Shown: positions 17,854 to 35,448 of the stretch, one piece after another
How positions within the stretch are numbered: position 1 is the first letter of the stretch
Layout of the letters: the number at the start of each line of letters is the position of its first letter
Assembly (NCBI GenBank): GCA_964534285.1
Contig: CAZHQV010000003.1
Location: forward strand, 1-37,004
Origin: an uncultured Dehalococcoidales bacterium
Lineage (GTDB): Bacteria; Chloroflexota; Dehalococcoidia; GIF9; AB-539-J10
DNA: 37,004 nucleotides
Direction: 5' to 3'
Made by a program: the position numbers and the translations under genes
Notes under the pieces: generated by a model
The model's database searches: none
What the model saw: the letters and a program-made list of their open reading frames with translations, nothing else
Told to the model about the DNA's origin: nothing

Positions 17854-18567
17854 ATGGGAAGGATCAAAGCATTTGGCAAATATGTGCCTGTCACCAAGGG
17901 TGGCCAGGTCAAGTTCTACCTTCCGCTGGAGAGATGCGCTGACATAGACGCGCTAAGTGCCAGCGGCTATGAGGTTGCCGAGGAGTGTCAGGATCTCATA
18001 GGAATTGTCAGGCTAATAAGAGAAGCTGAGAGTCGGCAAGCCGTGTCAGAGCGGAGAAAGCGCAAGTTTGTCACCGCCGCTCTTGCTGACTTTTCCCAGG
18101 AGGTAGGGAGCATAGACTTGCTTTGCCCGTACTGTCTAGGCCGGATTGAACGGAACTGCCCGGCTCATGAGGGTAAGGTTATCTGTGGCTGGTATGACGA
18201 GATAAGCAGCTGCGATGGCTCTGCGTCCTATAGTGTGGATAGAGCCAACTTTGTGCTTGGCATGCCGGATGTGGAAAGATACACCTGCTCTGCCCGGGGA
18301 ACTCAATTAGAGCTTACAGTTTACGACCTGCACTATCTCAGGGAAGAGATAGACCGCAGAACTAGAATAATCGAAGGAGACCAGACCTCAGCCTGCGACC
18401 TAGAGCTGGCCAGGATATTTCCGCTGAGAGTGAGCTTGGAGAGGACGAGACGTAGCTTCAAAGAGCTTGTCCGGGAACTCATGCAGAAAGATGCCATAAG
18501 CTGGCTGAACACCCTTAGCCTTGGGGACCTGGGAAGCCTGCTCGAGGGGGCGACCAAAAGAAGCTAG
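17854..18567 (+). CDS. hypothetical protein with CxxC...CxxH...C motifs
   Basis: RBS GAGGTG before ATG 17854; long ORF ending just before a double terminator. Confidence 0.65.
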   Translation: MGRIKAFGKYVPVTKGGQVKFYLPLERCADIDALSASGYEVAEECQDLIGIVRLIREAESRQAVSERRKRKFVTAALADFSQEVGSIDLLCPYCLGRIERNCPAHEGKVICGWYDEISSCDGSASYSVDRANFVLGMPDVERYTCSARGTQLELTVYDLHYLREEIDRRTRIIEGDQTSACDLELARIFPLRVSLERTRRSFKELVRELMQKDAISWLNTLSLGDLGSLLEGATKRS

Positions 18568-18607
18568 CAGAGTCTATGACAAAGGGAAGGTAGCAGTCGC
18601 AAAAAGA

Positions 18608-18687
18608 AAGGGGAGTTCAATCCTACACCTTGGGATTGAACTCCCCTTGAACACAAAAAGGGGCTACCTATCCGCCCCTTTTTGTGT
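18608..18687. terminator. two tandem hairpins (bidirectional terminators)
   Basis: 16-bp stem (18608-23/18633-48) and 14-bp stem (18651-64/18674-87) with A/T tracts, between convergent genes. Confidence 0.8.
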
Positions 18688-18711
18688 GTGGCTATTCTCG
18701 GCTATTGCGTT

Positions 18712-19968
18712 CTATGCTACTCCTACGGCTTCCGCTTCCTCTTCGGCTACCGTTTCGCCTTCGGTTTCCTCTTCGGCTTCCCCTTCGGCCTTGGGCTTCG
18801 CCTTCCGCTTCCGCCTGGGCTTTCCTTTCCTTTCCGCTTCAGTTTCGCCTTTGGCTTCGGTTTCCGCTTCGGCCTTGGCTTCCTCTTTCGGTAGAAACAT
18901 CGGCATGACAAGACAACGGTGACTGTCAACGGTGAGGAGCATGGCCGATTTCTCGTCAACTATGCTCAAATCCACCATGCCACCACAGGCCTTCAGCGCG
19001 ACTAGCAACCGCTTGCCTTCAACGGCTATAGTAGCTTCGCCCGTAGTTTCCGCGGCTATTTCCGCCTGTCCTCTTTCGCCCTTGGCTTCTACGACTATCT
19101 TACCTTCGGCTACGGTCAAGGTAAGCGGGCGGTATAGAGGTTTCAGGCTATCGTCATACCAGATAGTCAACAGGCTTCGGCTTGCCCTGATTAGCTCTTT
19201 CGAGTCAAAGCTAGCAGTAGCCGTAAACTCTGTCGGTATGATTTGCTCGTAGTTGGGATAAGTCCCGTCCTGGCTTCGGAAACGGTATCTAATTAAATCC
19301 GTTTCCACTACGAGAAACTTTTCCACGATAGCGCCGTTATCGTTTGCCTTGTCCTCAATGCCGAGCTTCACCCGTCTTGACTTCCGCAAAGCTGGAATCA
19401 AGCCTTTCAATTCACTAGCGTATATCAAGGCTTCCGCTTCGCCCTCGTCAAAGCTGAGGTTAACTTCGCTCAGGCTAAAGCCATCGCAACCTGTAAAGGT
19501 TAGCCTGTTGTCCTTCTGGACAACCTGGGCGCATTGGAGAACAGGGCGCGCTTGGTCACTGGAAGTGAACGGCAGAACCTTTGACAGCGCTTCGGCTAGC
19601 TCAACGCTACCGACATTCGGCATGACGGCGTTTCTAGGCGAAACGTGGACTTCGGCATAGCTATGAGGAGTCTTGTCCTTAATCCACGCTCCATCGGGAA
19701 TATAGCCTTGGTGACTACCACAAACTACCTTGGCGGCCTTTTCGGCAACCTGCGATTCGCCAGCGCTGCCGTTGGCAGGTACTACCTTGACGATATTGCT
19801 ACCTGCCAAAGCCTTCAGGTAAGCGGTGAAGCCTCTTCGCCCTACAGTGACATCGTTGAACACGGCTAACCTTTCGGCTAGCACCGTTGACAACGCTCCT
19901 ACCAGTAAGTCCTTATGGGCGACAAAGCCAATGCCAGAACGCTTGCCTTCTATATTCACTTGCTCCAA
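18712..19968 (-). CDS. divergent DNA polymerase III beta-clamp (DnaN)-like protein with charged tail
   Basis: SSDQARPVL, GCDGFSL (cf. ATDGHRL), DGTYPNYEQIIP, CLVMPM. First domain is divergent; ~60-aa E/A/K/R tail; not next to dnaA. Confidence 0.8.
   Translation of the reverse strand: MEQVNIEGKRSGIGFVAHKDLLVGALSTVLAERLAVFNDVTVGRRGFTAYLKALAGSNIVKVVPANGSAGESQVAEKAAKVVCGSHQGYIPDGAWIKDKTPHSYAEVHVSPRNAVMPNVGSVELAEALSKVLPFTSSDQARPVLQCAQVVQKDNRLTFTGCDGFSLSEVNLSFDEGEAEALIYASELKGLIPALRKSRRVKLGIEDKANDNGAIVEKFLVVETDLIRYRFRSQDGTYPNYEQIIPTEFTATASFDSKELIRASRSLLTIWYDDSLKPLYRPLTLTVAEGKIVVEAKGERGQAEIAAETTGEATIAVEGKRLLVALKACGGMVDLSIVDEKSAMLLTVDSHRCLVMPMFLPKEEAKAEAETEAKGETEAERKGKPRRKRKAKPKAEGEAEEETEGETVAEEEAEAVGVA
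18720..18890. repeat. imperfect hexamer repeats (TTCGGC/TTCCGC) encoding the clamp tail
   Basis: Visible directly; encodes EA/ET/EG dipeptides. Confidence 0.7.
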
Positions 19969-20131
19969 TGTATCACCCCCCTTAATCGTATTCGGCCAGG
20001 CTAGCCATAACCTGGCTATTGATTAGAGCAAGAGGTTTATTGAAGCTGTCGAGGTTACTTGATAGCTGCTGTCCGCTAGCCTATCTTTCCCCTCTACTGT
20101 AGTAATGATTTTGGGAAGGCAAATTGATACA

Positions 20132-20599
20132 TCAAAACAAGGCTTTCTGCGCCTTGGCTAGCTCTTTTCGACGGGCACGGGTTAAATAGGTTTGCTCGTT
20201 TTTGTTGAGCGGCTTGCCTGCCACCCTCTTATGAGCAATGCTGACTAGCCGCCTCGGACATCCCAGAAGCCATCTTTTGGCATCCTGCCACAGCTCCAGG
20301 TCTATGGCTTTGTCATCCGCTAGCGTTTCCCACAATTCGGTACTATTGCCTTCATCATCCTGTATCTCGACATTGAGGCTTAGCATGGTCAACACTCGCT
20401 TTTGTCGATGCCAATACTCCATCGTCACATAGCTAGCGACTCTAAGCATTGACGCTTCGGTAAATGGCTTATCCCCGTTGTTGCTGGCTAGCTCGGCAAG
20501 CCTGAGTACGATGTCATGCCTTAAATCTTCCCTATCCTGATACCTTGCCTTGTGTTGAAACCTGTCGGCAATTTGACTATACTTCTGCCAGTCTAGCAT
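20132..20599 (-). CDS. small sigma-70-like protein with abbreviated region 4
   Basis: RBS GGAGG. DREDLRHDIVLRL and MEYWHRQKR (region 2-like), LSLNVEIQDDEG...ETLADD (region 3.2-like), YLTRARRK. Confidence 0.6.
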   Translation of the reverse strand: MLDWQKYSQIADRFQHKARYQDREDLRHDIVLRLAELASNNGDKPFTEASMLRVASYVTMEYWHRQKRVLTMLSLNVEIQDDEGNSTELWETLADDKAIDLELWQDAKRWLLGCPRRLVSIAHKRVAGKPLNKNEQTYLTRARRKELAKAQKALF

Positions 20600-20704
20600 T
20601 GTGGAGTCCCTCCCTTTGTTAGATTTCCCTGGTTAGCTATTCCCTAGCCAGGGATTTTGTTACCCTGCTAGATAGGCAGGCGTTCAGGCTTTCGGCTTTG
20701 CCAC

Positions 20705-20724
20705 CTATTCAATTGTTAAGGTGC
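20705..20724 (-). promoter_or_regulatory. rrn boxA-like motif in the leader
   Basis: Minus strand GCACCTTAACAATTGAATAG resembles rRNA-operon boxA elements and is followed by two hairpins. Confidence 0.45.
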
Positions 20725-21456
20725 TACCAGATACTCATATCTGTTACGAGTATTGTGCTTTACAAAAGATGCTTTTGAAAAGGAAAGGAAGTAATTACTT
20801 TTTTGGTCTAGATTCAAAACCGAGAAATTCTTGTCTCGCCATTCGGGAACAAGATGAGAGTTGAACTAGACTGTTACGGTAAGAGTGTAGGTGTTCTTGT
20901 CCGATTGCCTAACGAAGCAGGCAAGGACCAATGAACCCGCTTTTGAGGAGCCTATTAGTAGAAGACATGGGCTATTGAAAGCGAGAGCCCCGGCAATAGA
21001 AAGGGCGCAGAACTGGGATGTGGGAACCAGCTCTAGCTTGAGAGACGTTGAAGCTATCTCATCTCTTGTGAAATTCCTCCCTATCAGTCAATTCCGAGAG
21101 TCATTCTGATAGGACTACATGCCTGCTGGCTCACCATATTTCGCAATCAACAACCATGTCACAGGCTGAGCTTCTTGTAGAACAATCTCTCGAGGGAGCT
21201 GACAACGTTCTCGAGGCGGTGACCACACTTAGACTGGGTATGTCCCTAGCCGCGATGGCTGCAGTCTTCGCCAGGAAAAGAACAAAGCATATGCAGAGAA
21301 AGGGATTTCGAGTGCAGCCAGACGCTAGGTTAATTGACAGATCGCATGCAACATTGAACTCTCACACTCACCTTATGCGTGGATTGAAGAAGGAACCAAC
21401 CGGGCCGCCCATTCACGGACAGTGTATCAATTTGAGAGTCGCAGTTGATCAATGGG

Positions 21457-21585
21457 AAGAATCCTCATGCCATTGCCTTGGGTAGATTGGGTGGTCTGTA
21501 AGGTGGCAAGGCTAGAGCTTCGAAGTTATCTCCTGAACAAAGAAAAAAAGCCGAAAAAGCTGCATTGAAAAGGTGGCATAAATAG
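21457..21585 (+). pseudogene. small basic GRLGGLKGG-type protein with a nonsense codon
   Basis: KNPHAIALGRLGGL*GGKARASKLSPEQRKKAEKAALKRW; TAA at 21499 where Lys is expected. Confidence 0.6.
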
Positions 21586-21588
21586 CAA

Positions 21589-22080
21589 TTATATTTCTGG
21601 CATGCTGGTTTGCCGAGGGATAAAGGGAATTTCTTTTACTTCAATGTAATCTTGTCCAAACGCCTTTACACCCTCATCGTGACTATATATACATTCAGCC
21701 CCTTGAGAAATGGCTGTAGCCACAATCAGACTGTCCATCTTTAATTCAGTCCTAGTCTTACCACTCTCTATTAGGCTATTTACAGACTCCTGCCCCTTTC
21801 TAGAAAGCCAAATCTTAGCAAACTGACTAGCAGCTGCCGTATCAAACGGTGCTACAACAAAACCCCTATCAAACAGATTTATTACAGCAGGGTGCATATC
21901 TGCCGGTATGGGCATCAAAAATTCAGCTACTACAATAGAAGGTATCAATACACGTATTTTATCTTCTTGTAATTGCCTAATGAATGATTTCGTGCGAGGT
22001 ATCATGTCTTCTTGCCCTGGGGTTGCCTGTTCTTTGATACCCCATACTAGAACGTGATTATCGAAACAAACCAAACTCAT
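21589..22080 (-). CDS. PIN-domain (VapC-like) nuclease
   Basis: Acidic residues in FDNHVL, VVAEF, DSLIVATA, YSHD. Confidence 0.85.
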   Translation of the reverse strand: MSLVCFDNHVLVWGIKEQATPGQEDMIPRTKSFIRQLQEDKIRVLIPSIVVAEFLMPIPADMHPAVINLFDRGFVVAPFDTAAASQFAKIWLSRKGQESVNSLIESGKTRTELKMDSLIVATAISQGAECIYSHDEGVKAFGQDYIEVKEIPFIPRQTSMPEI

Positions 22081-22877
22081 TCAGTTTTCGATTCTAATCG
22101 CCTGATGTCGGAAATGTACTTTTTTACATCAGTTACATCACTATAATATATGCCTACGGCCTTAGCCAGCTGGTTCATGGCATCTTCCAACAGCAATTCC
22201 TCGTAGGGTGTTACATCTTCTATAGTGAATTGTTCTAACCTTAATGATTCAGCATCCCATCGTGCCATTCCTAGTAAACCAACAACAGTATAGAGTCTAT
22301 TGCCCAGTTTCTTGGCTACATCTTTGTTTGTATCACAAAATACTGTTTGCCCACTAAGCAGTTCCACCATGGCTCTTGGTTCTCTACCTCCTACTCTCAC
22401 AACCTGCCCATATACTATAGTCTCCCCAGATAATCTAGCACGTCTTTCCAATGTGGTCTGGGGTGTAATTGTTGCTAAGACCTCGCGATGCTCGTTGCTA
22501 GTCACAAGTTCAGCAACGCATTGTTTCTTGCGTGAGAATGTTATTATTGTCTCAACGGCATCAATAGAACTCGTGGGTAATCCTTTATAATCATTGGTTT
22601 CTATGGCTTGCCCTACGCTTCGAAATATGGGAAAAACTATATTCTCAATAGGCGAAACAAACTGAAGACCAATGCTCTCCGACTTAATATTCACAAAACC
22701 AACGATGACCTGTTCCTTGTTAATCTCAGGGTGGTCACGGAAAACTTGAGACTCGACCATATTTTCTACGGCCTTGAGGATCTCTCCAATATCACTAGCT
22801 TTAACAGAGTCTGGTTTGATATTTTCGCCTGAGAAGTTGACCTCTATGAGACTTTTTGAAAGAGCCCTGTTATTCAT
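22077..22877 (-). CDS. hypothetical protein translationally coupled to the PIN gene
   Basis: RBS AAAGGAGG; ATGA overlap with the PIN gene; 266 aa. Confidence 0.8.
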   Translation of the reverse strand: MNNRALSKSLIEVNFSGENIKPDSVKASDIGEILKAVENMVESQVFRDHPEINKEQVIVGFVNIKSESIGLQFVSPIENIVFPIFRSVGQAIETNDYKGLPTSSIDAVETIITFSRKKQCVAELVTSNEHREVLATITPQTTLERRARLSGETIVYGQVVRVGGREPRAMVELLSGQTVFCDTNKDVAKKLGNRLYTVVGLLGMARWDAESLRLEQFTIEDVTPYEELLLEDAMNQLAKAVGIYYSDVTDVKKYISDIRRLESKTE

Positions 22878-22995
22878 GCCAAACTTGGCCTCCTTTCACA
22901 GACATGTTAGAATATCTCTGATTGGGAGGGGCCTAAACTACTTCCATTAGTTTAGACACACGGTAAGAAGAATATCAGTAGCTAGTTTGAGACTG

Positions 22996-23030
22996 ATATT
23001 AGCAGAAGTACCCTACTGTCACAAGTAGGG
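22996..23030 (-). promoter_or_regulatory. candidate promoter with overlapping inverted repeat
   Basis: TTGTGA-17-TAATAT with TGn; inverted repeat CCCTACT-N6-AGTAGGG at 23011-23030. Confidence 0.4.
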
Positions 23031-23346
23031 ATTTCCTTTTTGTACGAGGAAAACTACCCGAAAGTACCTATCTGACGCAAAATTTTCTTTCAATTTAACC
23101 CCCATTTAGTATTGATCGATACTTCGTCCCATAGAATGACTTACGATACCTGGTCAATGTAGGTATTCAGTTGGTCTTCAGAGCAAAGTAGGAGCATCCT
23201 GCAATCATGACATCGTCATATTTAAGGCGTTTGCCCAACAGAGCGTGCCTATATCTGTCCTAGTAGCTTTGCTTAGTGCCGCAGTTGGTGCTGGAGTAGG
23301 TAGTCTGATGACATAGTTGTTGATGAGGTAAGACGCGAATCTATAT

Positions 23347-23694
23347 TCAGGCTGTCAACCACAGTCGAGCAGAACCGCTCAGATGAGGCTTCAGCTTGTC
23401 CTCCAAGGTCCACCAAGGTGCTCCCCCAGGCAAAGGTTGAGACCACATGGTTACTGCGATTCCAGCACTTGCTAAATGAGTACCGCGATTTTGACTGGTG
23501 CCACCAATTGCCTGATTGTCAGGAACAAAGTACGAAGTGGTTTTGGCCAAAAATCCGATGGAGGTCCCGACAGGCTCTGGAGGGAGGCAACGTCCAAAAC
23601 CCAAGGTAACCCAGCGGACTACATCCTGTCCAGCAAGTAGAATCCTCAGCGCTACTTCGATTTTGGCCTCGCACTCGGTGATGCTCATGGCCAT
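23347..23694 (-). CDS. hypothetical protein
   Basis: TGATG overlap with the upstream gene; no motif recognised. Confidence 0.35.
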   Translation of the reverse strand: MAMSITECEAKIEVALRILLAGQDVVRWVTLGFGRCLPPEPVGTSIGFLAKTTSYFVPDNQAIGGTSQNRGTHLASAGIAVTMWSQPLPGGAPWWTLEDKLKPHLSGSARLWLTA

Positions 23695-24476
23695 CAGCCC
23701 TGCCCGGTAACCGAGTCAAAGCCACGTTCTGTAGCCCTCGTTCCATATCTCGCTTCAAATTCCCTGCGTCGAGCTTCTTCCCTAAGCCTTTGCGCCTCTT
23801 CTCGTTGGCGCCTTTGTTCCTCCCTGGCCCAACAGTCCTCGTGTGCCCATCCACGTTCCCTCGCCAGCTGCCTGATGGCGGTCTTTTCCTTTTGGCTCGT
23901 CACCTCGATCGGTTCGCCGCAGAAAGCACAGGCGTAAGAAACCAGGTATGTTTCCTTACCTTGTGCGTATCCCTCGGAGTGACCTTCTTTGCGCCCTTGA
24001 TCCTCGGCTTTCTTGAGCGCTTCCCCCGTTTCGGCCCTTAGCCTGGACCGCTCATCATCCAAGGTCCTCTGGCTGCGTTTCTTTTCCTCGACCCTGCCCA
24101 TCTCGAAGCCTTCCTTATACCCGTCATGTCTAGCTTCTTTGACCACTTGTTCCTTTTCCTCCTTTAACTTGCTCTTTTCATTGTCCAAAGCCCTCTTAGC
24201 ATCCCTTTCTCCCTGCAGCTTTCCCTTCTTGTACCCCGATTCGTACGCTTGTAGTCGGGCCTCCTCAGTGTCTTCGATGAGGGCCTTCTGGGCGCCCATT
24301 GCTTCCTTTATGAACTCGGATCTTGATATGCCCCGTTGACTCAGGTGTGTCCTTAATTCGTTCCACAGACCCCTCTCCATACGAAAGGAAACTGTGGGGT
24401 GAGAATCCTCGTATCTGAGCCTTGATAGCGGCTTGCGTTTCCTCTGTGTTGCCTTGCCACTAACCATGTCAAGCAC
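23694..24476 (-). CDS. ribbon-helix-helix protein with coiled-coil/GxxxG repeats and CxxC motif
   Basis: PTVSFRM...ELRTHL...GISRSEFIKEAM (CopG-like pattern); three GY..G...G segments; CAFCG...HEDC. Confidence 0.75.
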   Translation of the reverse strand: MLDMVSGKATQRKRKPLSRLRYEDSHPTVSFRMERGLWNELRTHLSQRGISRSEFIKEAMGAQKALIEDTEEARLQAYESGYKKGKLQGERDAKRALDNEKSKLKEEKEQVVKEARHDGYKEGFEMGRVEEKKRSQRTLDDERSRLRAETGEALKKAEDQGRKEGHSEGYAQGKETYLVSYACAFCGEPIEVTSQKEKTAIRQLARERGWAHEDCWAREEQRRQREEAQRLREEARRREFEARYGTRATERGFDSVTGQG

Positions 24477-24479
24477 TGT

Positions 24480-24527
24480 AGATTACCCTATGGTTTACCA
24501 TAGGGATTACCATATCGATTACGACAC
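24480..24527. repeat. four 12-bp repeats with an embedded palindrome
   Basis: agattaccctat/ggtttaccatag/ggattaccatat/cgattacgacac; CCCTATGGT-TT-ACCATAGGG at 24486-24505. Confidence 0.75.
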
Positions 24528-24582
24528 GGAAAAACCGTGCCGTGCCGGCACGGCAAACGGCAAAAACTGGCACGGGCACGGA
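24525..24582. repeat. CACGG/CCGTG repeat block
   Basis: CACGG-AAAAA-CCGTG and the perfect 18-bp palindrome TGCCGTGCCGGCACGGCA (24538-24555). Confidence 0.7.
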
Positions 24583-24615
24583 TACCGGGAGAGCCGTAGA
24601 GAAAGGGCGCGGCCG

Positions 24616-24697
24616 GCACCACCACCAACACCGGCACCAGCACCAGTACCGCAACCGCAACCACAACCGCTAACACCATCATCGCAACCGCTTCCGC
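24616..24697. repeat. ACC-rich hexamer block
   Basis: GCACCA/GCAACC-type units. Confidence 0.7.
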
Positions 24698-24725
24698 TAG
24701 CACGGCTTTACCTTCTTTCCAGCAC

Positions 24726-24905
24726 TTTCTCTGGGCCGAGATTTCTCCGACATTTCTCCGCGGTTTCTCTGGTGAGATTTCTCTGTTTCTCTAGCATTTC
24801 TCTGAGATTTCTCTAGAGTTTCTCTACGGTTTCTCTGCCGTTTCTCTACCCCGTTTCTCTGGATTTTCTCTGAAATTTCTCTGATTTTCTCTGTGACGCT
24901 TCTCT
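24726..24905. repeat. phased TTTCTC(T/C) array
   Basis: 15 copies at 24726, 742, 753, 764, 778, 786, 797, 808, 819, 830, 841, 854, 865, 876, 886 plus a variant at 24899; mostly 11-bp spacing. Confidence 0.9.
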
Positions 24906-24975
24906 ATGAGTTTTCTATTTCAAGAGCCTTCGACAACACATCGTCAAGCGTACAACTGCATAAGGATCTGCCATA

Positions 24976-25024
24976 ACCGGACCGAGACCGAACCCGAACC
25001 GGACCGCACCGGCGTGGGTGCGGT
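24976..25024. repeat. ACCG block with hairpin
   Basis: ACC(C)G at 24976, 981, 987, 992, 998, 25003, 25008; stem ACCGCACC/GGTGCGGT. Confidence 0.7.
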
Positions 25025-25096
25025 GCCGCAACCGAGAAGCTGAACGCACCTCGCTCACCTGTTTACCTCTGTGCCTTAGCAGTGCACTGGACCGGA

Positions 25097-25286
25097 CAGA
25101 CTGGCCAGAGATCTGGTACCAGAAAACAAGCAAAAATCGGGAGCAGAGCGCTTCGCAGAAATCTGGATCCAGAAATGTCACAGGAACCCGACCAGAAACC
25201 CCAGCCAGAAAGCGACCAGAAATGGGACGGAAACCTCCGCCCAGAAGATCATCACGACGCTGAACCAACAAGAGCACATACAGAAA
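25097..25286. repeat. CAGAAA-type array
   Basis: Exact copies at 25120, 156, 170, 193, 206, 217, 281, with variants between them at 9-14 bp spacing. Confidence 0.7.
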
Positions 25287-25464
25287 CCTAAGCGGCGCGA
25301 AAATGAACAGCGCCGCGACCAAGATGTTGGGAATGCCGGAGAGCGCCGTCTGGCTGGGCTTTGGCTTAACGCGAACCTGGAACCACCTTTCCTCTTGATC
25401 CAATGTCGACGCTGATGACTTACCGTTCAACTCGCCGCCTAAGAGCCTTCTGTGGGCAAATCCC

Positions 25465-25767
25465 CTAACCATCTCGATCATATGCCACAAACCCCCTCGC
25501 GTTACGGGCCAATTGCACAGATTTTAGGGATTTCCGGCGTCTTTGGCGCTCTTCTTCAGTCAGCTGCGGGCGCTTTGCCGGGAGCCTTAGCCATTTCTTG
25601 GGAAACTCGTACTCTCGAGCTTCCCCCTCGGTCCGGATAGGCTTCAGGCCCATTTCCTTCATCCTGCGCTGCCACCTCTCGTTGTAGGTGAACACATTGA
25701 CCATGAGATCCCCTTCATTGAACGTGATGATGGTTTCCTGTTCCTGTCGCGTCAGTTTGACCCTCAT
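25465..25767 (-). CDS. hypothetical mobile-element protein
   Basis: RBS AAGGAG before ATG 25767; EQETIITFNE...YEFPKKW...LTEEER. Confidence 0.7.
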   Translation of the reverse strand: MRVKLTRQEQETIITFNEGDLMVNVFTYNERWQRRMKEMGLKPIRTEGEAREYEFPKKWLRLPAKRPQLTEEERQRRRKSLKSVQLARNARGFVAYDRDG

Positions 25768-25793
25768 CTGCGCTTCTCCTTGATAACCATGAT

Positions 25794-26210
25794 TCAGCCA
25801 AACTCTGGATGCGCCGCCCGGACTGGATCCTCCCACACCTCCTCTTCAGCTTTGCCCTTATCTGTCAACCGGTAGAACCTTTTTCGCTCAAGGAAGTCAT
25901 AAATGGCCTGCTCCGTTCTGTCCGTGCGCTCAACCAAGCCCAGGAGTTTGAACCAGTGGAAATACTTCGCGAAACTGCTATAGTTTGGCCTTCTGAACGG
26001 TTTTTCGCCTATTTCCACACGTTCCTTATTCATACGCTTTATCTCCTGGCTCAAGGCGTAGTAGATGTCAGCGGCACAAGCCTCTCCATACTCTTCAAAG
26101 TAGTGCTTAACGAAAAGGCCCGGCCGATATTCACTAGCAGCCCTGCCCCACGGGACCCCTATTCGGTCAGGATCCACTGCTGTGTTTCCGAGGTTAGGTA
26201 CTTCTTCCAT
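25794..26210 (-). CDS. winged-helix-like DNA-binding protein
   Basis: YSSFAKYF...LGLVE...RFYRLTDKG wing pattern; starts 5 bp after the recombinase stop. Confidence 0.65.
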   Translation of the reverse strand: MEEVPNLGNTAVDPDRIGVPWGRAASEYRPGLFVKHYFEEYGEACAADIYYALSQEIKRMNKERVEIGEKPFRRPNYSSFAKYFHWFKLLGLVERTDRTEQAIYDFLERKRFYRLTDKGKAEEEVWEDPVRAAHPEFG

Positions 26211-26215
26211 TGTCC

Positions 26216-26830
26216 TTAGTCCCCGTCTTGCCAAACGCGATCATAGTCCTGGTGTAAATCCTCCACTGAATACTGTAGATAGACGGATGTCGTAGTTGGC
26301 GACTGGTGACCCAGTATCTTCTGTAGCCGCTCTATGCTCATGCCTCTCTTGATGCAGTGGACTGCAAATGAATGGCGGAGGTGATGAGGATGGAGCTTCC
26401 TGTGCTGCGACACGAAGGGGTCGCCAATCTCTCTTATGCCTGCTCTCCTTCCCAGCTTCCAGAAGATCTGGTCTACCCGTTGCCTCGTAATAGGAAATAG
26501 CAAATCACCTTTGTATGGGAACTGTTTCCGCCATTCCAGGTATTCTTTCACCATGTCCAGCGTGCCTTGGTCAACGGGAACTCGCCTTCTCAGTTCCTTG
26601 ACCTTGCCATCCTTCTTCCGCATCTTTTGGATCCTGATGGCGATTGCGCGATTCTCAAAGTCGACGTCGGATAGCTTTATGCCAATGAGCTCCGATACCC
26701 TAATGCCGGTACGCCACAGGATTCGCACCAGGAGCTTGTCTCTGCAGTTGGAAGCGGCATCAAATAACTTCTCTACCTCATCAACGTCGAGGTATCCCTT
26801 CAGATCTCTGATTGGAGTCACTTCAGGCAT
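26216..26830 (-). CDS. short tyrosine recombinase (catalytic domain only)
   Basis: TGIRVSE, HPHHLRH, LGH, TTSVY all intact; 204 aa. Confidence 0.92.
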   Translation of the reverse strand: MPEVTPIRDLKGYLDVDEVEKLFDAASNCRDKLLVRILWRTGIRVSELIGIKLSDVDFENRAIAIRIQKMRKKDGKVKELRRRVPVDQGTLDMVKEYLEWRKQFPYKGDLLFPITRQRVDQIFWKLGRRAGIREIGDPFVSQHRKLHPHHLRHSFAVHCIKRGMSIERLQKILGHQSPTTTSVYLQYSVEDLHQDYDRVWQDGD

Positions 26831-26852
26831 TGCCAGGAACCTCGTCTACCCG

Positions 26853-27167
26853 TTAGCCGTCATCGGCCTTTAAGACCTCGTTAAGCATCCATCTGGCATA
26901 GCTGGCCCGCTCATCGTCGGCTGTTATCTCTGCCTGTTGAAGGATACCGCGCCATTGTGGAATCGAAACCCGGCGCCACTCCCTTAGTATCCAGGGCACA
27001 CTATCTTCCGCCAGCTGCTCCCTGCACCTCCCGCTATCGAGCGCGTGTTGCATCGCCGGCCTGCCATCTCTTTGTATCTCTCTCAGGCGCTCTTCGTAGA
27101 GGCGACGCATTCCTCCCTCGGGTAGGAGAGCTATCAACCGCTCGAGCTTCTGCACGTCAGTATCCAT
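26853..27167 (-). CDS. hypothetical protein
   Basis: Co-oriented within the operon; GGAG RBS; helical composition. Confidence 0.6.
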   Translation of the reverse strand: MDTDVQKLERLIALLPEGGMRRLYEERLREIQRDGRPAMQHALDSGRCREQLAEDSVPWILREWRRVSIPQWRGILQQAEITADDERASYARWMLNEVLKADDG

Positions 27168-27395
27168 CTCCGCTTTGTGTGCGAACTCCTTGCCTGCGTT
27201 TGCGGAAACCAGTAACCGCTACTGCCTTTGCAGCTTTGACCTCGTGTCTGCAAGGAGTGGTTACCATCCGGAGTGACCAGTAGCAGAGACGTCGCCTTGG
27301 CCGCTCGAAGTGGTCACTCAAGCTCGGCAGCACGGCCTTCCGGCAGGAAACCCGATCTGGCAAGCGAGTGGTGGTTACTGGTTCAGGCCTTCCAA

Positions 27396-29966
27396 TCAAT
27401 AGATTTGCACACACGCTTGCACTCCTTGTAGTTCAGCACCTAGCCTCAATGCTTCTCGTAATTCGCTCGGGGTAGTAAGCCCCTTCACCTCTGATTGTGC
27501 CGGAGTTACTCCTCTAGCCAAGCGGTAGTGCTTTGTGCCCCCCTGACTCCAAGGCGAGGCAAGTTCCACAAACTCCTGGTCCTCCAGTGGGGGGAAATAC
27601 TTCTTGATATAGGAATCAGTCAGACCTACGAATGCGCGGAGCTGTCGCCTAGTGAATGTCGCTTCCGCGGCCGGTGACTCCGCAGCCGAGACCATTTCAA
27701 GAACTTTCGTCAGCAGAAACCGGCTTTGCGGTGCTAAGTCATCGAGAGCCGCCCGCAAGGCAGCGCGGCCATAACGATAGGCCAAGGCATAGTCAATACC
27801 ATCAGCCTCGATGTAGGACACTTCGGAGCCATCTGGCTTGTGGTACACTTGTGCAGTCTTCTGATACTGCCTGATGAATGCTATTTGCTTTATTAGCTGG
27901 AGAAACCGAGGAAAGTCCCTGCGCGTCCTTATCTGGTCGTTAGGAAAGCGGATGAAGTCAGCGTAAGGAACAACCACCTCAACATCCTCCAGAAGACGCT
28001 GGGCATTCTGATGTCGGCGCTTCGTCTCCGCCCTCTGTTCGTCAATTTCTAGGCCCTCCCTCGTCGCTCCTTTGCGCTGGGCCTCATGGATGCGCTTCGT
28101 CTGATCCGCCGACTCGTCCAAGTAGACCGTGAAAACTCTGGTGGCGTTCTCGGGGTTAATTGTCGCCCTGGTGGTAGTCTCAGTGTAGGCCACTGGACCT
28201 TTCACTTCGTGCTCGACGGTCTCCATCCTTCCCGTCTCGGGGTCTCTCACTGGGCAGGCGACCTTTATTACCTTCTCCGACTGAAGCACCCGAATGCTGT
28301 AGTCTGCCTCGTCGGCACCACTACGTTCGGTGATTACTAGCCACTTGTGGCTGAGGCCAGTGTCCAGATAGTCCAGCGCCTTGGGGGTTATCCTAGTGAA
28401 TTCTACCACCTCGTCATGAGGGATAAGTGACGCCACGCCTCGAACGAGGTAGTTCTTGCCCGCAGAGGATGCTGCTCTCACTATGACGCCCAAGGGCTCG
28501 TTTGACTTTCTGGACGTTGCGACCACGTAGACGAGCAACTTGTTCTCTGTTTCACCAACGACTCCCATGGAGGTTAAATCTCTGATTATGCGGACGATTA
28601 GGTTTGGGCTTCTGAGAAGAGCCAATGCTTCCTCTTTTTCGTTGTCAGACATGACCGGAGCTGGAGTGGCCTCAACCGGGGGAGTGACATCCGCCGTCTC
28701 GTCCTCCCCTTTTTGTGCGCAGTGCCTCCGTGGAACTTCCTTCTCCAGCAGCCTAAGGGTCCTCGTGTAAGGGGATAGGTCCCGCTCCTTGAGGCTAAAG
28801 CGAGGCGCTATCCGGTGTCTCAGGTAGGCTTCGCTCTTGGCTGGATCCAGACTGGCGAGCAGTTTGAGACAAGGACGCAGTACATCTGGCAGCTTCACCT
28901 TATCTACGTCGGCCGGAATTTGGGATACCTGGTGCTCAACGTAGTCCTGACCCTGCGTCAGTAGGTCGGCGAACTCATCCCTTGTGTGTCCCTCATCCAC
29001 AAACCGGCATGGGTCATTGATTCCTTCCGGTAGCCGTACCACCTTTGACTTGGGGAAAAGTCTTTCTGCCAAGTCCAAAGCAGCCCTCTTTCCCTCCACG
29101 TCTGTGTCTAGGCAGACGTAAATAGACTCCGCCTTGTTGAGAACAGGCAACCAGTCGTCTTTACAGGAGGTTCCCAGGAGGGCGACGGTCGAGTAGCCCC
29201 ATCCCCAGATGGGAATGGCGTCGAACGGACCTTCAACCACTATGAGGTCGTTAGCCCCTTGCCTCAGAGTCGACGCATAAAGGGACTTAGGCGTCGGCAG
29301 CCCGAGATACTTCGGTTCGGCGCCACTCACGGACCTGCCAACGAGCCAGATAACTTTGCCGCTCCTCAAGCACGGAAACATGATTCGCCCTCGGAAGAAT
29401 TCCCGCAGTTGGCCGTTACGCTCATACACTAGGCCTGCACTCTTGGACATATCCTCTCCGACGCCATGAGCTTGGAGGAAGGCTACGAGACCTGATCCAG
29501 AGGCAACCCCTAGCTTGAGCTCCAGTGTAGCTTCAAGGCTGATGCCTCGCCTTTGAAGATAATCTCGGCCCCATTTTCCTAGACGACTATTACCCATAAG
29601 CAGATCCTGATAGTAGTTAGCGGCCAGCATCAAGACATCCTGAACAGCTCGGTGCTGCTGCATGTCTGTATAGCGTTGCGAAGACAGCTGTGCCACTGGA
29701 ATGCCAGCCCTCCTCGCCAGAAGACGGACTGCCTCGGGAAAATCCACACCCTCCTTGGCCATTACCAAGTCGAACACGTCCCCACCCTTACGGCAACCAT
29801 AACAGTAGAAAGTCTGGCTCTCTGGGTACACATTGAAGCTACGACGGGTCTCGTGATGAAGTGGACATAGGCCAGTAAGGCGCTTACCTTCCTTGCGAAG
29901 TTCGCAATATTGACCGGCTACATCCTCTATTGGCGATGCTTCGCGCACGAATTCAAGGTCCTTCAT
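27396..29966 (-). CDS. DnaG-type primase fused to a P-loop NTPase (putative helicase) and wHTH-like tail
   Basis: CHC2 zinc finger CPLH...CYGC, TOPRIM VVEGPFD and DTD, Walker A AASSAGKN, Walker B-like WLVITE; RBS GAGGAGG. Confidence 0.9.
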   Translation of the reverse strand: MKDLEFVREASPIEDVAGQYCELRKEGKRLTGLCPLHHETRRSFNVYPESQTFYCYGCRKGGDVFDLVMAKEGVDFPEAVRLLARRAGIPVAQLSSQRYTDMQQHRAVQDVLMLAANYYQDLLMGNSRLGKWGRDYLQRRGISLEATLELKLGVASGSGLVAFLQAHGVGEDMSKSAGLVYERNGQLREFFRGRIMFPCLRSGKVIWLVGRSVSGAEPKYLGLPTPKSLYASTLRQGANDLIVVEGPFDAIPIWGWGYSTVALLGTSCKDDWLPVLNKAESIYVCLDTDVEGKRAALDLAERLFPKSKVVRLPEGINDPCRFVDEGHTRDEFADLLTQGQDYVEHQVSQIPADVDKVKLPDVLRPCLKLLASLDPAKSEAYLRHRIAPRFSLKERDLSPYTRTLRLLEKEVPRRHCAQKGEDETADVTPPVEATPAPVMSDNEKEEALALLRSPNLIVRIIRDLTSMGVVGETENKLLVYVVATSRKSNEPLGVIVRAASSAGKNYLVRGVASLIPHDEVVEFTRITPKALDYLDTGLSHKWLVITERSGADEADYSIRVLQSEKVIKVACPVRDPETGRMETVEHEVKGPVAYTETTTRATINPENATRVFTVYLDESADQTKRIHEAQRKGATREGLEIDEQRAETKRRHQNAQRLLEDVEVVVPYADFIRFPNDQIRTRRDFPRFLQLIKQIAFIRQYQKTAQVYHKPDGSEVSYIEADGIDYALAYRYGRAALRAALDDLAPQSRFLLTKVLEMVSAAESPAAEATFTRRQLRAFVGLTDSYIKKYFPPLEDQEFVELASPWSQGGTKHYRLARGVTPAQSEVKGLTTPSELREALRLGAELQGVQACVQIY

Positions 29967-30162
29967 GAGCAACCTCCTCGCCGTTAGGCTCTCCTTTCGA
30001 TAGGGGATCTAAATTGCTGCGGTGCCATCGGACGATGATGCGAGACAGAAGTCGTAGCCCTTGCGCCCGCAAACCCCCGTCACGGCACGAAGGTCTATTT
30101 TGCCTTGTCGTTATTTGGCCTGGCTTTCGCTCCCTAACTGCCGGTGTTCTCATAAATCTCAT
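29953..30162 (-). CDS. small hypothetical protein
   Basis: Overlaps the primase start; contains GLRLLSRII helix. Confidence 0.35.
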   Translation of the reverse strand: MRFMRTPAVRERKPGQITTRQNRPSCRDGGLRAQGLRLLSRIIVRWHRSNLDPLSKGEPNGEEVAHEGP

Positions 30163-30533
30163 CCGCTGAACACCTGAGCGCCTCGTTCAGGCCCAACGCA
30201 TAGGTGAGTAAGCCAGCCCTGAAATCGCACACCCAATAACGAGCACCCTTTTCAGGATTGAAATTTGTCGACAGATGCTCATCCCCGTTCTTGTGAGCCT
30301 GTGGGCGCAGACACTTTGTCCGGTATTCACCATTGCCGACGCCTAACCGGCGCGCTCGCGTAGCGCGTCTAAAATTGCCTGTACAAGTCCTGAACCTGTG
30401 CTAGCATTGTCCATGTCTCAATCTCCCTTATGAGCCAGCAGCGGCTCGTTGCCAATGGTGGCCCTTCTTTCTGCCGATTCAGGCCATGGTATACTGTGGC
30501 GGGGGAGCCAAGATTAATCCGGCGCAGGGCTGC

Positions 30534-30749
30534 TTACTGCTCCTTTTTCTTATTTCCTGACTCCCCCATCGTCTGCTCCAAATTAGCTTTCTTCGGGCGC
30601 CCTCCCATTTTCCCCCAATCGCGAGCTTTGTTCGGATATTGAGCCCTCATAGCTGACTGCCCACTTCTACCCAGCCTCACAAAGTGGGTACGACCATATC
30701 TTCTCAGGACCGATAGGCCCCCTCGACGCCCTGCTTCATTGACAGTCAT
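30534..30749 (-). CDS. KGG-repeat (GsiB/Em-like) small basic protein
   Basis: MTVNEAGRRGG...LGRSG...WGKMGGRP; RBS GGAGGAG. Confidence 0.7.
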   Translation of the reverse strand: MTVNEAGRRGGLSVLRRYGRTHFVRLGRSGQSAMRAQYPNKARDWGKMGGRPKKANLEQTMGESGNKKKEQ

Positions 30750-30767
30750 TCCCAAATCTCCTCCAAA

Positions 30768-30868
30768 CAAAAAGAAAGAGCGACAAACTCTGGACGGTGA
30801 CGCTTGCCTGGCAATCCCTCCAGAGTTTGCCGCCCTCTTCTTACTCCGCCTAATCAGTTTGGGCGACA
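30768..30868 (-). promoter_or_regulatory. terminator/antiterminator-like leader
   Basis: 15-bp stem (30780-94/30819-33) with a U-rich tail; alternative pairing of 30861-68 with 30828-35. Confidence 0.55.
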
Positions 30869-30891
30869 GCGTCTATATTCAGTCTGAACTG

Positions 30892-30920
30892 AGTCTACAT
30901 CTGGGCATCAAAGGTGTCAA
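30892..30920 (-). promoter_or_regulatory. sigma70 promoter of the replication operon
   Basis: TTGACA-17-TAGACT. Confidence 0.65.
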
Positions 30921-31582
30921 GCGCGTGACAGGAACGAACAGAAGGTACTGATACGTTAAAACGCGATTGAAATGCTGTTGAATTGCGGTCCAACCGGCCA
31001 GGATGAGAGCCAAGAGAGAAAGCGCACCCATACCTAAGAAAGGGTCAAGCGCAATGTCGCCAAGGCAGCTGTAGGAGCAACTATGCGTTGAACGAATAAA
31101 GGCCAGAACAGGTTGATAGGCCTAGCCACATCGTTCCCACTCGCTAGCTTGCGTGTGGACGGAAGCACTAGACGGTTTGAATGCTCTCACCAACAGAATT
31201 GCGCCTTTCAGGATATCTCGGGCACCACCTCCTGAGCACGTCGGTACCACGACTTCCCTCAGACTAGTAGGTACAAAAGCCCACGTGGCACCTCAACCGC
31301 ACCCCGCACCGGATGCTATCTGCCTCAGCGCGCAGCATGCTACTGCTACTGCTCATCGGACGAGGTCTACCCAAGATGACCAATTTTGGTGAACGTCCCA
31401 CGCCTAGCATCACAGCAAAGGCAAAAGATCGTCACCACACAAAGCCGCTCAACGATGGTTGCTGAACGCCTCCTAGCGCTCACATCAATGGGCATGGCGA
31501 CTTAGCCAATCAATGTGACATCTCTCCGGAAGTCAGCTGTACCACTTGGCGAACCCAGAACCACCCCAGTCCACAAAATGAG

Positions 31583-32578
31583 TCACCTCAGACCAAGAAG
31601 ATCCGCTGGACTCGCCTTTGTGTGAGCCTCAAGGGCATCCTCCATTCCCAGAGTTGCCACATAGTGCCTTACCATCCTCAAATCCGAATGACCAAGAAGG
31701 TATTGAAGGTTAAATGGATTTCTATCGGCTCGGAGGAAGTTAATAGCAAATGTATGCCGAAAGCGGTGGCAATTCCCGCTACTTTTTACTCCCGCCCTCT
31801 GTTTGAGTCGCCTTACCATTATCTGGATGCCATCTGATCGCAAAGACCTTCCCTCTTCCGTTAGCCATAGGTCTTGTCTTCCATCATCCGGCCTATGCAT
31901 AAGATAGCGCCAAAGTGCTTTCTGTGGCGTTGCCCCAATTCTAACCACCCTCTCCTTGTCTCCCTTGCCTCGAATCTTAATCCATCCTCGCTCAGTGTCT
32001 ATGTCTTCGAGCCCGACACTGGCGATTTCACTTACTCTCAACCCAGTGTCTAGCAGCATCAAAATGATTGCTCTGTTCCGACTTCCGAGAAATCTAGCAT
32101 TATGCTGGTAATCATAATCGCACACTGCCAGCATCCTAGCCACTTCCTCTGGTGTATAAGGTTGTACGACCTTTGCTTTGGGATTGGACATCTTCACTCT
32201 TGCTATTGGGCTCTCAGTGAGGAAGCCTTCTCTGACGCACCAATTAAAGAAGGCTTTGAGAACGGCATAATAGTGATGGACTGTAGAATGTGAAGCTCGC
32301 CTTTCGCTCGATTCCGAGCCGTTGCCGTCAAGCCCCCAGCGACGCACTTCGCTCGTAACATACGCCAAGAATTCCCGTATGTTCCATTCTGTGATGAGTC
32401 GCACGTCGTGAGGCCAACTTTGCTGGTCGCAATACCACAAGAAGCGTTGGAGATTCCCTTCGTAGTACTCTACCGTTCTGGGGCTTTTGCCATCGGTCCT
32501 CTCTGTTAGCACAAAGCCTCTTACCAAGGATCTTAACGACGTCCCTGGTCGCGCCTCCGATTTGACATTTACTACCAT
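31583..32578 (-). CDS. tyrosine integrase (SAM-like + catalytic domains)
   Basis: TGLRVSE, GKGDK, HRFRH, LGH, RHY; starts 108 bp after the tRNA-Val CCA. Confidence 0.95.
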   Translation of the reverse strand: MVVNVKSEARPGTSLRSLVRGFVLTERTDGKSPRTVEYYEGNLQRFLWYCDQQSWPHDVRLITEWNIREFLAYVTSEVRRWGLDGNGSESSERRASHSTVHHYYAVLKAFFNWCVREGFLTESPIARVKMSNPKAKVVQPYTPEEVARMLAVCDYDYQHNARFLGSRNRAIILMLLDTGLRVSEIASVGLEDIDTERGWIKIRGKGDKERVVRIGATPQKALWRYLMHRPDDGRQDLWLTEEGRSLRSDGIQIMVRRLKQRAGVKSSGNCHRFRHTFAINFLRADRNPFNLQYLLGHSDLRMVRHYVATLGMEDALEAHTKASPADLLGLR

Positions 32579-32686
32579 CAGTCATTATGCAGCCCTGCGT
32601 CCTATCAAACAGGTGGTCAAGATTGTATTTGATCACCCTTAGTTTGTCCGACAATCAGGAGGTCTAAAGACCTCATCTCATACGTA

Positions 32687-32762
32687 TGGTGGGCAGTAGA
32701 GGACTTGAACCTCTGACCTCCTGTGTGTAAGACAGGCGCTCTAACCACTGAGCTAACCGCCC
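32687..32762 (-). tRNA. tRNA-Val(TAC)
   Basis: Cloverleaf; anticodon arm CCTGT-CTTACAC-ACAGG; GTTCAA T-loop; CCA encoded. Confidence 0.97.
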
Positions 32763-34442: not shown

Positions 34443-35370
34443 ATAGCAAATCTACTTCATGGTTATCAACTCCACGCTACTACAGAGGGAAAAGGCCCCA
34501 ATGCCATTGCCATTGTCGGCAACAGCGTAGGTTATTTTGAAGGCTTCCTCATGTCCCAAGGACGAACCACCGACGTAACTCAAATCAGCCGCCATGAAAT
34601 CAAGGAGTCCATTCTATATTTGCGACAGAAGAGGTGTTTCTCCGATCACCGGTTTGACCGCGGCGCGCGACAGGGGGCTTTCAGGACAGACCATAGATTG
34701 CTGTCTGCCCGGCCTGAGAATATTGTTCTCCCGGCTCATCTCATAAGGGATAGGAGGGACTAACTCGTTTAACCATGTGAAAATCCCACGACCAACCAGA
34801 AAAGCCATGCCTGCTTTCTCGGACTGGGAAATCCAGCAGTTGTTTAAGGCCATAGATACTGGAACCCCTGAAGGATACAGGGACTACGCCATCATCCTGA
34901 CTCTGCTTGACAGCAGCATTAGTGTACCCGAACTCTGCCGACTGGGGCTAGATAACGTCTGGCTGGAAGATGGCATGTTTGAGGTTCTGGGCAAAGGGAA
35001 TGAAGAACGTCTCACCCCGGTAGGTAGGGAAGTTCAACGCTGTCTCTGGCGTTATACTAGTCGCCACCGCCCTGAGCGAGCGACAGCTAATCCTGACTTC
35101 CTTTTTCTCACCCGAGATGGGAGGCCAAGACCAAAGATATGGTGGAGAAGATTATCACTCGCTGTGGCAGGAGCGCTGCACTGAAGGGAGACAGGTGCTC
35201 ACCTCACACCCTGCGTCACACAAAGGCAGTCAAATTCTTGCGTAATAGTGGCGACATATTCAGCCTTCAACACATTATAGGCCGCTCACAGCTCGAAGTG
35301 TTGAGAGGCTGCGTGAATCTTGCGCAGCCGGGCATGAGCGGCGTTCACCAAGGAACTCTCCGGCCGACAA
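34443..35370 (+). pseudogene. decayed tyrosine integrase
   Basis: Fragments TEGKGP, RDYAIILTLLDS, GKGNEER, SPHTLRHT. Frameshifts near 34660 and 35135, stop at 34744, catalytic R/H/Y substituted. Ends approximate. Confidence 0.85.
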
Positions 35371-35448
35371 CGTGGATTTTGGACTCCCTCAGCGGGGCAG
35401 GCGAACCGGACAAAGCTCGAAACGAAATGACATGCGCAACTGAGGAAA

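Follow-up and report, generated by a model that had tools for sequence, protein, structure and literature searches.

The region described here is a repeat-filled, 988 bp gap between two genes (positions 24477-25464) of what is plausibly an integrative element of an uncultured sediment bacterium of the Dehalococcoidales, and its closest described counterparts are the origins of Staphylococcus aureus pathogenicity islands (SaPI), phage-inducible chromosomal islands (PICI) and staphylococcal cassette chromosomes mec (SCCmec). As described for these elements, the iterons follow immediately after the initiator gene, whose product binds them through its C-terminal domain, and in PICIs two iteron sets are found around an AT-rich centre (PMC7581432, PMC6092414). 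Replication of P4 is described as depending on the alpha protein and its cognate site (PMC6092414). In pRN1, the repressor gene orf56 is paired with a primase-helicase, and the origin lies downstream of rep and acts in cis from outside the rep promoter; it is reported to be functional when moved elsewhere on the plasmid (PMC4234260). BcMCM, from a Bacillus cereus prophage, has an amino-terminus described as weakly primase-like (PMC2715239, PMC3273815). A preprint on the Dehalococcoides element IME1 concerns a different element type, and its main text does not once use the word 'repeat'.

The stretch of DNA that was analysed (the window) is the first 37,004 of the 39,205 bases of contig CAZHQV010000003.1 (C3), part of an assembly of 2.36 Mb in 301 contigs. 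The repeat region extends from the stop of a gene for a 123-residue protein (25465) to the start of a gene for a 260-residue regulator (24476 or 24467), and the two bordering genes are co-directional. We consider the chances evenly balanced that proteins bind 24477-25464 as a composite control region, which would belong to a replicative integrative element and be made up of an operator and a displaced iteron-type origin. Such a region varies known themes, and no new principle is involved.

As in SaPI, PICI and SCCmec elements, an element integrated at a tRNA gene and equipped with an integrase carries a primase and a helicase of the self-loading hexameric type, sometimes fused, with a C-terminal DNA-binding domain (PMC6092414, PMC7581432). 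The constant-core short repeats that would form the origin, in two sets around a centre, are a further likeness to SaPIs and PICIs (PMC6092414, PMC7581432). Relatives of the window's helicase also have repeats at the 3′ end of their genes, a likeness of layout. Unlike the SaPI and PICI arrangement, the arrays of the window lie 2.1 kb downstream, behind four open reading frames (ORFs), the centre is GC-rich, the two sets differ in core and period, and the copy number is high (15 + 7). The alpha protein of P4 is a primase-helicase whose C-terminal origin-binding domain acts on short repeated boxes in two cis regions (ori and crr), whereas the fold matches of the window's helicase are to MCM-type AAA+ proteins. 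The primase of the window is DnaG-type, in contrast to the archaeo-eukaryotic primases (AEP-type) described for SaPIbov1 and SaPI5 (PMC7581432). pRN1 likewise combines a small repressor gene with a multifunctional primase-helicase bearing a winged-helix domain (orf56 and ORF904; PMC4234260), but its origin is a 100 nt stem-loop and not a set of iterons, its primase is AEP-type, its helicase belongs to superfamily 3 and its host is archaeal. BcMCM is similar in being a bacterial mobile-element protein in which an MCM-like AAA+ helicase is fused to a primase (PMC2715239, PMC3273815). It has been placed among primase-polymerases, so that its primase is probably AEP-type, whereas that of the window is of the DnaG/TOPRIM type.

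Phased repeat arrays

All six repeat blocks listed in an initial annotation of this DNA are present where it had placed them, as judged from motif positions, Tandem Repeats Finder (TRF) and repeat scans. The main array, at 24726-24918 on the plus strand, consists of 15 TTTCTC(T/C) cores and two degenerate copies (the proposed iterons), and is built from a 7 bp core and a 4 bp variable spacer with a period of about 11.2 bp. The 15 TTTCTC motifs fall within 24726-24886 at intervals of 16, 11, 11, 14, 8, 11, 11, 11, 11, 11, 13, 11, 11 and 10 bp; nine of these 14 are exactly 11 bp, reproducing the counts given previously. The core is TTTCTCT in 13 of the 15 copies and TTTCTCC in two, and the 4 nt spacers vary. 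A lone inverted TTTCTCT core (24598-24604, minus strand) is situated about 120 bp from the main array.

The second array occupies 25106-25287 on the plus strand and carries seven copies of CCAGAAA/CAGAAA (nine counting near-copies) with a period of about 12.4 bp, in the opposite orientation to the main array. Its seven CAGAAA motifs, within 25120-25281, are separated by 36, 14, 23, 13, 11 and 64 bp; the spacing of about 12 bp proposed for them is recovered as a phase coherence (R) of 0.91 at 12.4 bp, but the phasing is loose. An AGAAA core is common to both large arrays and stands in opposed orientations, as had been described, being AGAGAAA on the minus strand in one and CCAGAAA on the plus strand in the other. 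The two arrays are divergent and flank a centre of about 200 bp. The GC-rich part of this centre (24975-25035) contains a 22 bp direct repeat (AACCGGACCG, at 24975 and 24997), an ACCG rhythm and a short hairpin (GCACCG...CGGTGC). The repeated, rhythmic character of this ACCG block was correctly recognised, but two clean interleaved 11 bp series are not seen; there is the 22 bp direct repeat with an inner rhythm of 5-6 bp. The AT content is 25-35% at 24975-25035 and 25-62% over the centre, and reaches its maximum of 62-66% at the right end of the main array. Folding of the centre is no better than that of shuffled sequences (z = 0.04). DnaA boxes are absent from the region, and the six one-mismatch matches across the window compare with 6.9 expected.

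Chance is a poor explanation for these arrays. The commonest 6-mer in 1000 dinucleotide-preserving shuffles of 24480-25300 had a mean of 3.4 copies and a maximum of six, compared with the 15 observed. The phase coherence of TTTCTC (R = 0.76 at 11.2 bp) was reached by 0 of 2000 random placements, and that of CAGAAA by 16 of 2000. A scan of the whole assembly for at least five copies of a 6-mer found 13 arrays, the runner-up having eight copies with spacings in multiples of 3, which suggests a coding repeat. The large arrays of the mosaic are the only such arrays in the window.

An origin by slippage, as a microsatellite or minisatellite, was rejected because 13 of 15 copies share one core sequence, whereas the 4 nt spacers differ, and the initial view that the blocks are unlike slippage repeats is borne out. 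A contrast is provided by unrelated viral contigs, in which a pattern scan for TTTCTCT at an 11 bp period gave 31 matches: the eight with at least five copies are exact or near-exact 11-mer tandems, and the other 23 have three to four copies each. The viral matches are otherwise uninformative. A coding reading of 24477-25464 was also rejected, in agreement with the statement that the region holds no convincing gene. The coding-homology searches covered two ORFs, of 191 and 127 residues; two shorter plus-strand ORFs, of 81 and 69 residues, are also present. The 191-residue ORF (24915-25490, minus strand) belongs to no NCBIfam or PHROG family and, among 1.84 billion representatives, had no match other than itself, and the 127-residue ORF (24433-24816, plus strand) had 0 matches among 219 candidates. 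A variant contig from another study carries 1 nt indels at 25081 and 25187, inside the 191-residue frame.

Near-identical DNA occurs in contigs of sequencing runs from several sediment and subsurface studies; the runs listed include none of RNA. Contigs from four runs carry identical or near-identical copies, none of which spans the whole stretch, and a contig from an independent study agrees at every base of 24653-24938, across the main array. The depth of read contigs at 24601-24691 is inflated by unrelated low-complexity matches.

Two further blocks lie to the left of the main array. GCACGG/CCGTGC boxes in both orientations occupy 24525-24590, with six copies within 24535-24581 and a perfect 18 bp palindrome at 24538-24555; the central palindrome and a T-run score as a terminator-like hairpin on the minus (gene) strand, from 24554 to 24534. 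Hexamers of the ACC type (GGT type on the gene strand) extend over 24613-24690 and include runs of GCACCA (5.8 copies at 24616-24650) and ACCGCA (3.8 copies at 24648-24670). GCACGG/CCGTGC boxes also precede two paralogous regulator genes of the same assembly (on contigs C148 and C76) and a homologue in the metagenome locus L096, at -65 to -41, but occur in only one of 70 metagenome loci. ACC/GGT blocks occur in either orientation upstream of the regulator homologues of L095, L096, C148 and C76, and also downstream of a paralogue of the 123-residue protein on contig C191. In L096 a long hairpin can form between the ACC and GGT blocks (z = -3.4), but no such pairing is seen in the window. The GCACGG palindromes and the ACC/GGT block are putative lineage-specific extra sites, which may be bound by a second protein or fold into a terminator-like hairpin that insulates the regulator promoter. 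Taken together, the blocks imply several different DNA-binding specificities, consistent with the multi-protein platform envisaged in the initial annotation.

On C191 (reverse strand, about 728-1004), the paralogue of the 123-residue protein is interrupted by an (AGGCT)n microsatellite, and the roughly 600 bp that follow are non-coding and contain an ACC-type block and GCACG boxes.

The regulator gene and its GGTAA array

The leftmost block of the region (24481-24523) is directly upstream of the regulator gene. G(A/T)TTAC occurs at 24481, 24493, 24505 and 24517, in exact 12 bp steps (TRF: period 12, 3.5 copies; R = 1.0 at 12 bp). Read on the minus strand, which is that of the gene, the block consists of four GGTAA(T/A)C units, namely GGTAATC, GGTAAAC, GGTAATC and a degenerate CGTAATC, and is the proposed operator, overlapping the promoter zone. 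The regulator itself (260 residues; 23694-24476, minus strand, with the likely true start at the ATG at 24467) has a ribbon-helix-helix-like (RHH-like) N-terminus, a long helix and a CxxC...H..C zinc module.

Metagenomes yielded 80 loci with a homologous gene, and the 76 with at least 160 bp of upstream sequence were used for counting. Three or more GGTAA motifs spaced by 12-13 bp (or multiples) are present within 220 bp upstream of the gene in 56 of the 76, on a background of 1.37 GGTAA per kb per strand. The two full-length homologues for which DNA was available, L095 and L096, are the closest, and have three to four copies of GGTAAAC abutting the ATG; in these two and in the window 5-15 bp separate the end of the array from the start codon. 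A sample of 401 genomes of the same class contained the regulator gene in 15, the window's own included, and GGTAA arrays were found in three of 13 inspected loci (L207, L208 and L224), while one other shows GTATAC at 12-13 bp spacing. A contig from run X5 has insertions of 12 nt and 11 nt and further GATTACC units within 24485-24515. These insertions are consistent with added repeat units, so that the copy number of the operator would vary between strains.

Full-length homologues of the regulator are 49-72% identical to it. Many short homologues keep the N-terminal motif R-Y-E-x-S-H-P...R and the CxxC...H..C module and lack the long helix. Leads to the RHH fold are weak: they consist of a strand-helix-helix at model residues 26-60 and a lead to PF01402 (0.82). 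Foldseek with the full-length model returned mostly weak matches, with the Arc repressor at rank 34 (E = 4, template modelling score 0.60), and sequence searches of PDB and NCBIfam gave no RHH match. A scan of viral contigs with the regulator protein found no relatives.

The pairing of the regulator gene with a GGTAA array is solid. That the GGTAA(T/A)C block is a conserved operator of the 260-residue protein is well supported by the comparative pattern, from which we infer binding and repression. Dimers of the protein would bind side by side, every 12 bp, over its own promoter zone, repressing the gene. A protein-DNA pair is defined in this way, comprising an uncharacterised family of RHH-like/zinc proteins and a conserved GGTAA operator with 12-13 bp spacing, at dozens of sediment metagenome loci. 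Elsewhere the regulator gene heads an operon with a short recombinase, proteins like those of 146 and 155 residues in the window, and a clamp homologue; homologues of the short tyrosine recombinase follow it in 7 of 46 loci.

A second array, of five GGTAAAC copies with a 12 bp period, is found in the same assembly at C8:17916-17966 (L094:7917-7967), near a split tyrosine integrase and a tRNA-like sequence. No intact regulator homologue was detected at this array by tblastn, and a frame downstream bears only a faint resemblance to the N-terminus of the regulator family, so that the site may be a decayed copy of the module.

The candidate origin and alternative readings

The proposed initiator is an 858-residue fusion (27396-29972, minus strand) of a DnaG-type primase with an MCM-like AAA+ helicase and a winged-helix-like end. 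Its N-terminal half matches the DnaG-type primase family (TIGR01391, 3.6e-58). A model of residues 440-858 (pLDDT 87, pTM 0.84) matched MCM2-7 subunits in a fold search (E down to 3e-9), and model residues 336-379 form three short helices and a beta-hairpin by DSSP, a winged-helix-like arrangement. On this model, the helicase is predicted to be of the self-loading initiator type with a C-terminal DNA-binding domain. The primase/MCM-like helicase and the clamp homologue mark the element as replicative. A scan of viral contigs with the primase found no relatives. The MCM-like fold, along with the reading of the GATTAC block as a candidate family-wide operator and of the CACGG palindrome as a terminator-like hairpin, was not part of the initial annotation.

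The C-terminal part, of 419 residues, falls into a very large family represented in many phyla (3704 matches among 8000 candidates scored), whose members are fused to DnaG-type or other primase domains. Tandem repeats with periods of 7-13 or 20-24 bp were counted at 76 loci carrying helicase relatives: two 200 bp bins around the gene end contain 33 and 34 (about 2.2 per kb), compared with 0-11 (0.0-0.8 per kb) in all other bins within 3 kb, a 5-6-fold enrichment at the gene end. Seven of the 76 loci have five to seven copies of a 6 bp core at exactly 11 bp with variable spacers, the same design as the main array of the window, and in L082 the 11 bp core repeats come directly after the winged-helix coding part. 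This widespread family, with its MCM-like fold and 3′ iteron-like repeats, extends the SaPI/PICI origin rule well beyond the original hosts.

At the loci of helicase relatives (L015-L093), tyrosine recombinase matches were found in 62 of the 80 searched; at the loci inspected they are downstream of the primase-helicase gene, often two in tandem. The iteron-like repeats of these loci lie between, or overlap, low-complexity C-terminal codons of the helicase (e.g., L082:9622-9687).

By analogy with the known origins, and from these relatives, the large arrays have about an even chance of being a displaced iteron-type origin for the primase/MCM-like helicase. The 15 TTTCTCT and seven CCAGAAA copies would be the iterons, serving as binding sites for the winged-helix end of the fusion protein, which would assemble the helicase there in either orientation; the clamp homologue encoded by the element would assist in replication. 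No array is present in the two other non-coding stretches examined, the 1.4 kb gap at 30160-31590 and the DNA just downstream of the primase gene (27100-27460). A related arrangement is seen in L100, which encodes a 72%-identical homologue of the 146-residue protein and has an array in the corresponding slot, between the gene for this homologue and that for a short regulator. The core of the L100 array is GACACA, with 14 direct copies at 11-12 bp and additional inverted copies, in a 68 bp unit repeated four times; changing specificity is expected of iterons, so an array with another core fits the origin reading. The 68 bp unit (L100:560-880) consists of an inverted pair, ATGTGTC...GACACAT, around an A-rich spacer and three direct GACACAC copies at 11-12 bp. 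The region is thus a concrete candidate origin for an uncultivated lineage's replicative integrative element, and an origin of this kind could seed genetic tools for such organisms; should it not be an origin, the array with its 15 copies would stand as a binding platform of unusual size.

Several points weigh against the combination of operator and displaced origin. The arrays begin 2.1 kb downstream of the primase stop (27396), with four ORFs between, instead of directly 3′ of the gene, where only three GTGGTYAC copies are found, 53-61 bp apart. The centre between the arrays is GC-rich, the AT-richest part being the right end of the main array; with 25-35% AT at 24975-25035 the centre is not a classical AT-rich unwinding element, and no convincing one was found in the region. 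One protein may not bind both arrays, since their cores (GAGAAA and CAGAAA) and periods (11.2 and 12.4 bp) differ. L095 and L096, with full-length regulator homologues, have the hexamer and palindrome blocks and no 11 bp array, and the nearest helicase relatives with DNA (L015, L016 and L018) are without a comparable array. L014, from the same genus, has no comparable mosaic, with 8-9 bp repeats just after its helicase gene. Arrays are kept in the same places in related elements, for instance the GGTAA block and the array in the L100 slot, in support of the initial annotation. As for the operator, the RHH fold assigned to the regulator is tentative, and a sigma-70 promoter scan of the region found 0 promoters. 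Protein-DNA contact, replication activity and an excised circle are matters of inference.

The initial annotation had left open whether the region is an origin or a centromere. The first has gained from the primase/MCM-like fusion and the 3′ iterons of its relatives; the second has become weaker, because no partition NTPase (nucleoside triphosphatase) was found. As a centromere-like partition or pairing site, which we judge unlikely, the phased arrays would be coated by the RHH-like protein, and the excised element segregated or tethered, possibly without an NTPase, as is reported of StbA from R388. The layout resembles that of R1 parC/ParR, TP228 parH/ParG and R388 stbS/StbA, in which helically phased short repeats are next to the gene of a small dimeric protein that binds them cooperatively, and the centromere repeats of R1 and R388 come in 11 bp units. 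In the window the RHH-like gene directly abuts a phased array, the CCAGAAA period (12.4 bp) is close to that of the GGTAA array, and the long form of the regulator (window, L095 and L096) co-occurs with an extended mosaic, most short forms having the GGTAA array alone. Known RHH centromere-binding proteins are described as binding arrays upstream of their own operon, either continuous or split around the promoter (PMC5016525, PMC3130281), R1 parC being split into two sets with the promoter between (PMC5016525). Unlike these centromeres, however, the element has no motor gene that could be found: searches with NCBIfam, PHROGs and PADLOC among the ORFs of 18.7-32.6 kb (those of 60 residues or more) gave no ParA, ParM or TubZ-like gene. 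The motif shared across the regulator family is GGTAA at 12-13 bp and not the 11 bp array or the cores of the large arrays, and the operon that the regulator gene heads in other loci contains a short tyrosine recombinase instead of a motor.

Rather less likely again is a purely regulatory region without any role in replication or segregation, in which stacked operators for the RHH-like, 146-residue winged-helix, 123-residue and 104-residue proteins silence the integrated element and a terminator completes the arrangement. Operator-like behaviour of the GGTAA block and the terminator-like hairpin on the gene strand would both be accounted for, and with the flanking genes all in one direction the region would separate two transcription units. 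The 7 + 4 direct-repeat design is, moreover, also typical of winged-helix response regulators. What such a region leaves unexplained is a number of copies (at least 15) far above that of usual operators, the need of the primase-helicase for an origin when no other array exists in the element, and the iterons carried by the helicase relatives.

Origin and tethering may also be combined in a single platform, to which we attach a low probability, slightly below that of the purely regulatory region. The helicase would load at two divergent iteron arrays, and the RHH-like protein would bridge the GGTAA array to other arrays or copies through its 125-residue helix and zinc module, so that one kilobase couples copy control, NTPase-free pairing or segregation, and silencing. 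If true, the replicon would be of a kind not described before, and its platform would be one of a family of RHH-zinc/recombinase/winged-helix/clamp modules that are common among sediment bacteria.

A recombination accessory platform (an attP arm, or a cer/res-like site), used by the integrase or the short recombinase and with the RHH-like protein acting as a directionality or architectural factor, is improbable. The integrase is 6.3 kb away and tRNA-Val 7.2 kb, no candidate core site was found, and no tRNA-derived fragment longer than 13 nt is present in 24400-25600 or across 18500-32680. The occurrence of the short tyrosine recombinase after the regulator gene in 7 of 46 loci speaks for such a role, as do the homologous region on C148, which adjoins a tRNA gene, and a conserved fragment resembling a tRNA T-arm beside the mosaic in L095 and L096, although ARAGORN finds no tRNA in either locus. 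That the repeats act as RNA, with the AGAGAAA copies of a long leader or a non-coding RNA titrating an RNA-binding protein, is hardly credible: the arrays are on the sense strand between co-directional genes and the hairpin with its T-run could terminate such a transcript, but no Rfam family was found at gathering thresholds, the centre folds no better than shuffles (z = 0.04), and the L100 array has copies in both orientations, which fits recognition of duplex DNA.

Gene order and neighbouring features

Almost all genes between 32.7 kb and about 18.7 kb are on the minus strand. From the right, tRNA-Val (32687-32762) is adjoined by the gene for a 331-residue tyrosine integrase (31583-32578, minus strand), and the initial designation as an integrative element is plausible on account of this integrase beside tRNA-Val, but no attachment-site direct repeat of at least 10 nt, or repeat of the tRNA-Val end, was found. 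There follows a 1.4 kb ORF-poor stretch between the integrase and the primase operon (30163-31582), which has no ORF longer than 79 residues and no arrays, and contains a 21 nt inverted repeat at 30777-30836. After the 858-residue primase fusion come a 104-residue ORF and the short tyrosine recombinase, 204 residues long and comprising the catalytic domain alone (26216-26830, minus strand). The gene for the 146-residue protein (25794-26234, minus strand) has winged-helix-like leads of the PadR/MarR type, which are leads only, and a PDB sequence search with this protein gave no meaningful match. The 123-residue protein (25465-25836, minus strand) is assigned to no family; its gene is the last before the arrays, and its paralogue is the one on C191.

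Beyond the repeat region and the 260-residue regulator, a lower-GC stretch with a few small genes leads to the gene for the 155-residue protein (20132-20599, minus strand) and to that for a DnaN-like sliding-clamp homologue of 418 residues (18712-19968, minus strand), which is kept downstream of the 155-residue gene in related loci. PADLOC found no defence family among nine element proteins. In L099, L108 and L116 the clamp and 155-residue genes are retained downstream of the regulator, recombinase and winged-helix genes (42-46% identity), forming a recurring five-gene module. The clamp homologue of the window has an acidic C-terminal tail encoded by repeats at 18716-18889.

Just upstream of the mosaic in L095 (9700-9760) and L096 (4560-4620) is a conserved sequence, GATTCGAACCC..CTGTGATTTTTTTGGTA, which is like the T-arm and acceptor end of a tRNA and may be the remnant of an attachment site. 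A 1125-residue protein encoded at 21-3398 (plus strand) of the window has partial matches to BREX/MADS-type adenine methyltransferases, all far under curated cut-offs. Past the tRNA cluster, at 34657-35616 (plus strand), tblastn detects fragments resembling the integrase and the short recombinase, which may be the remnant of another element.

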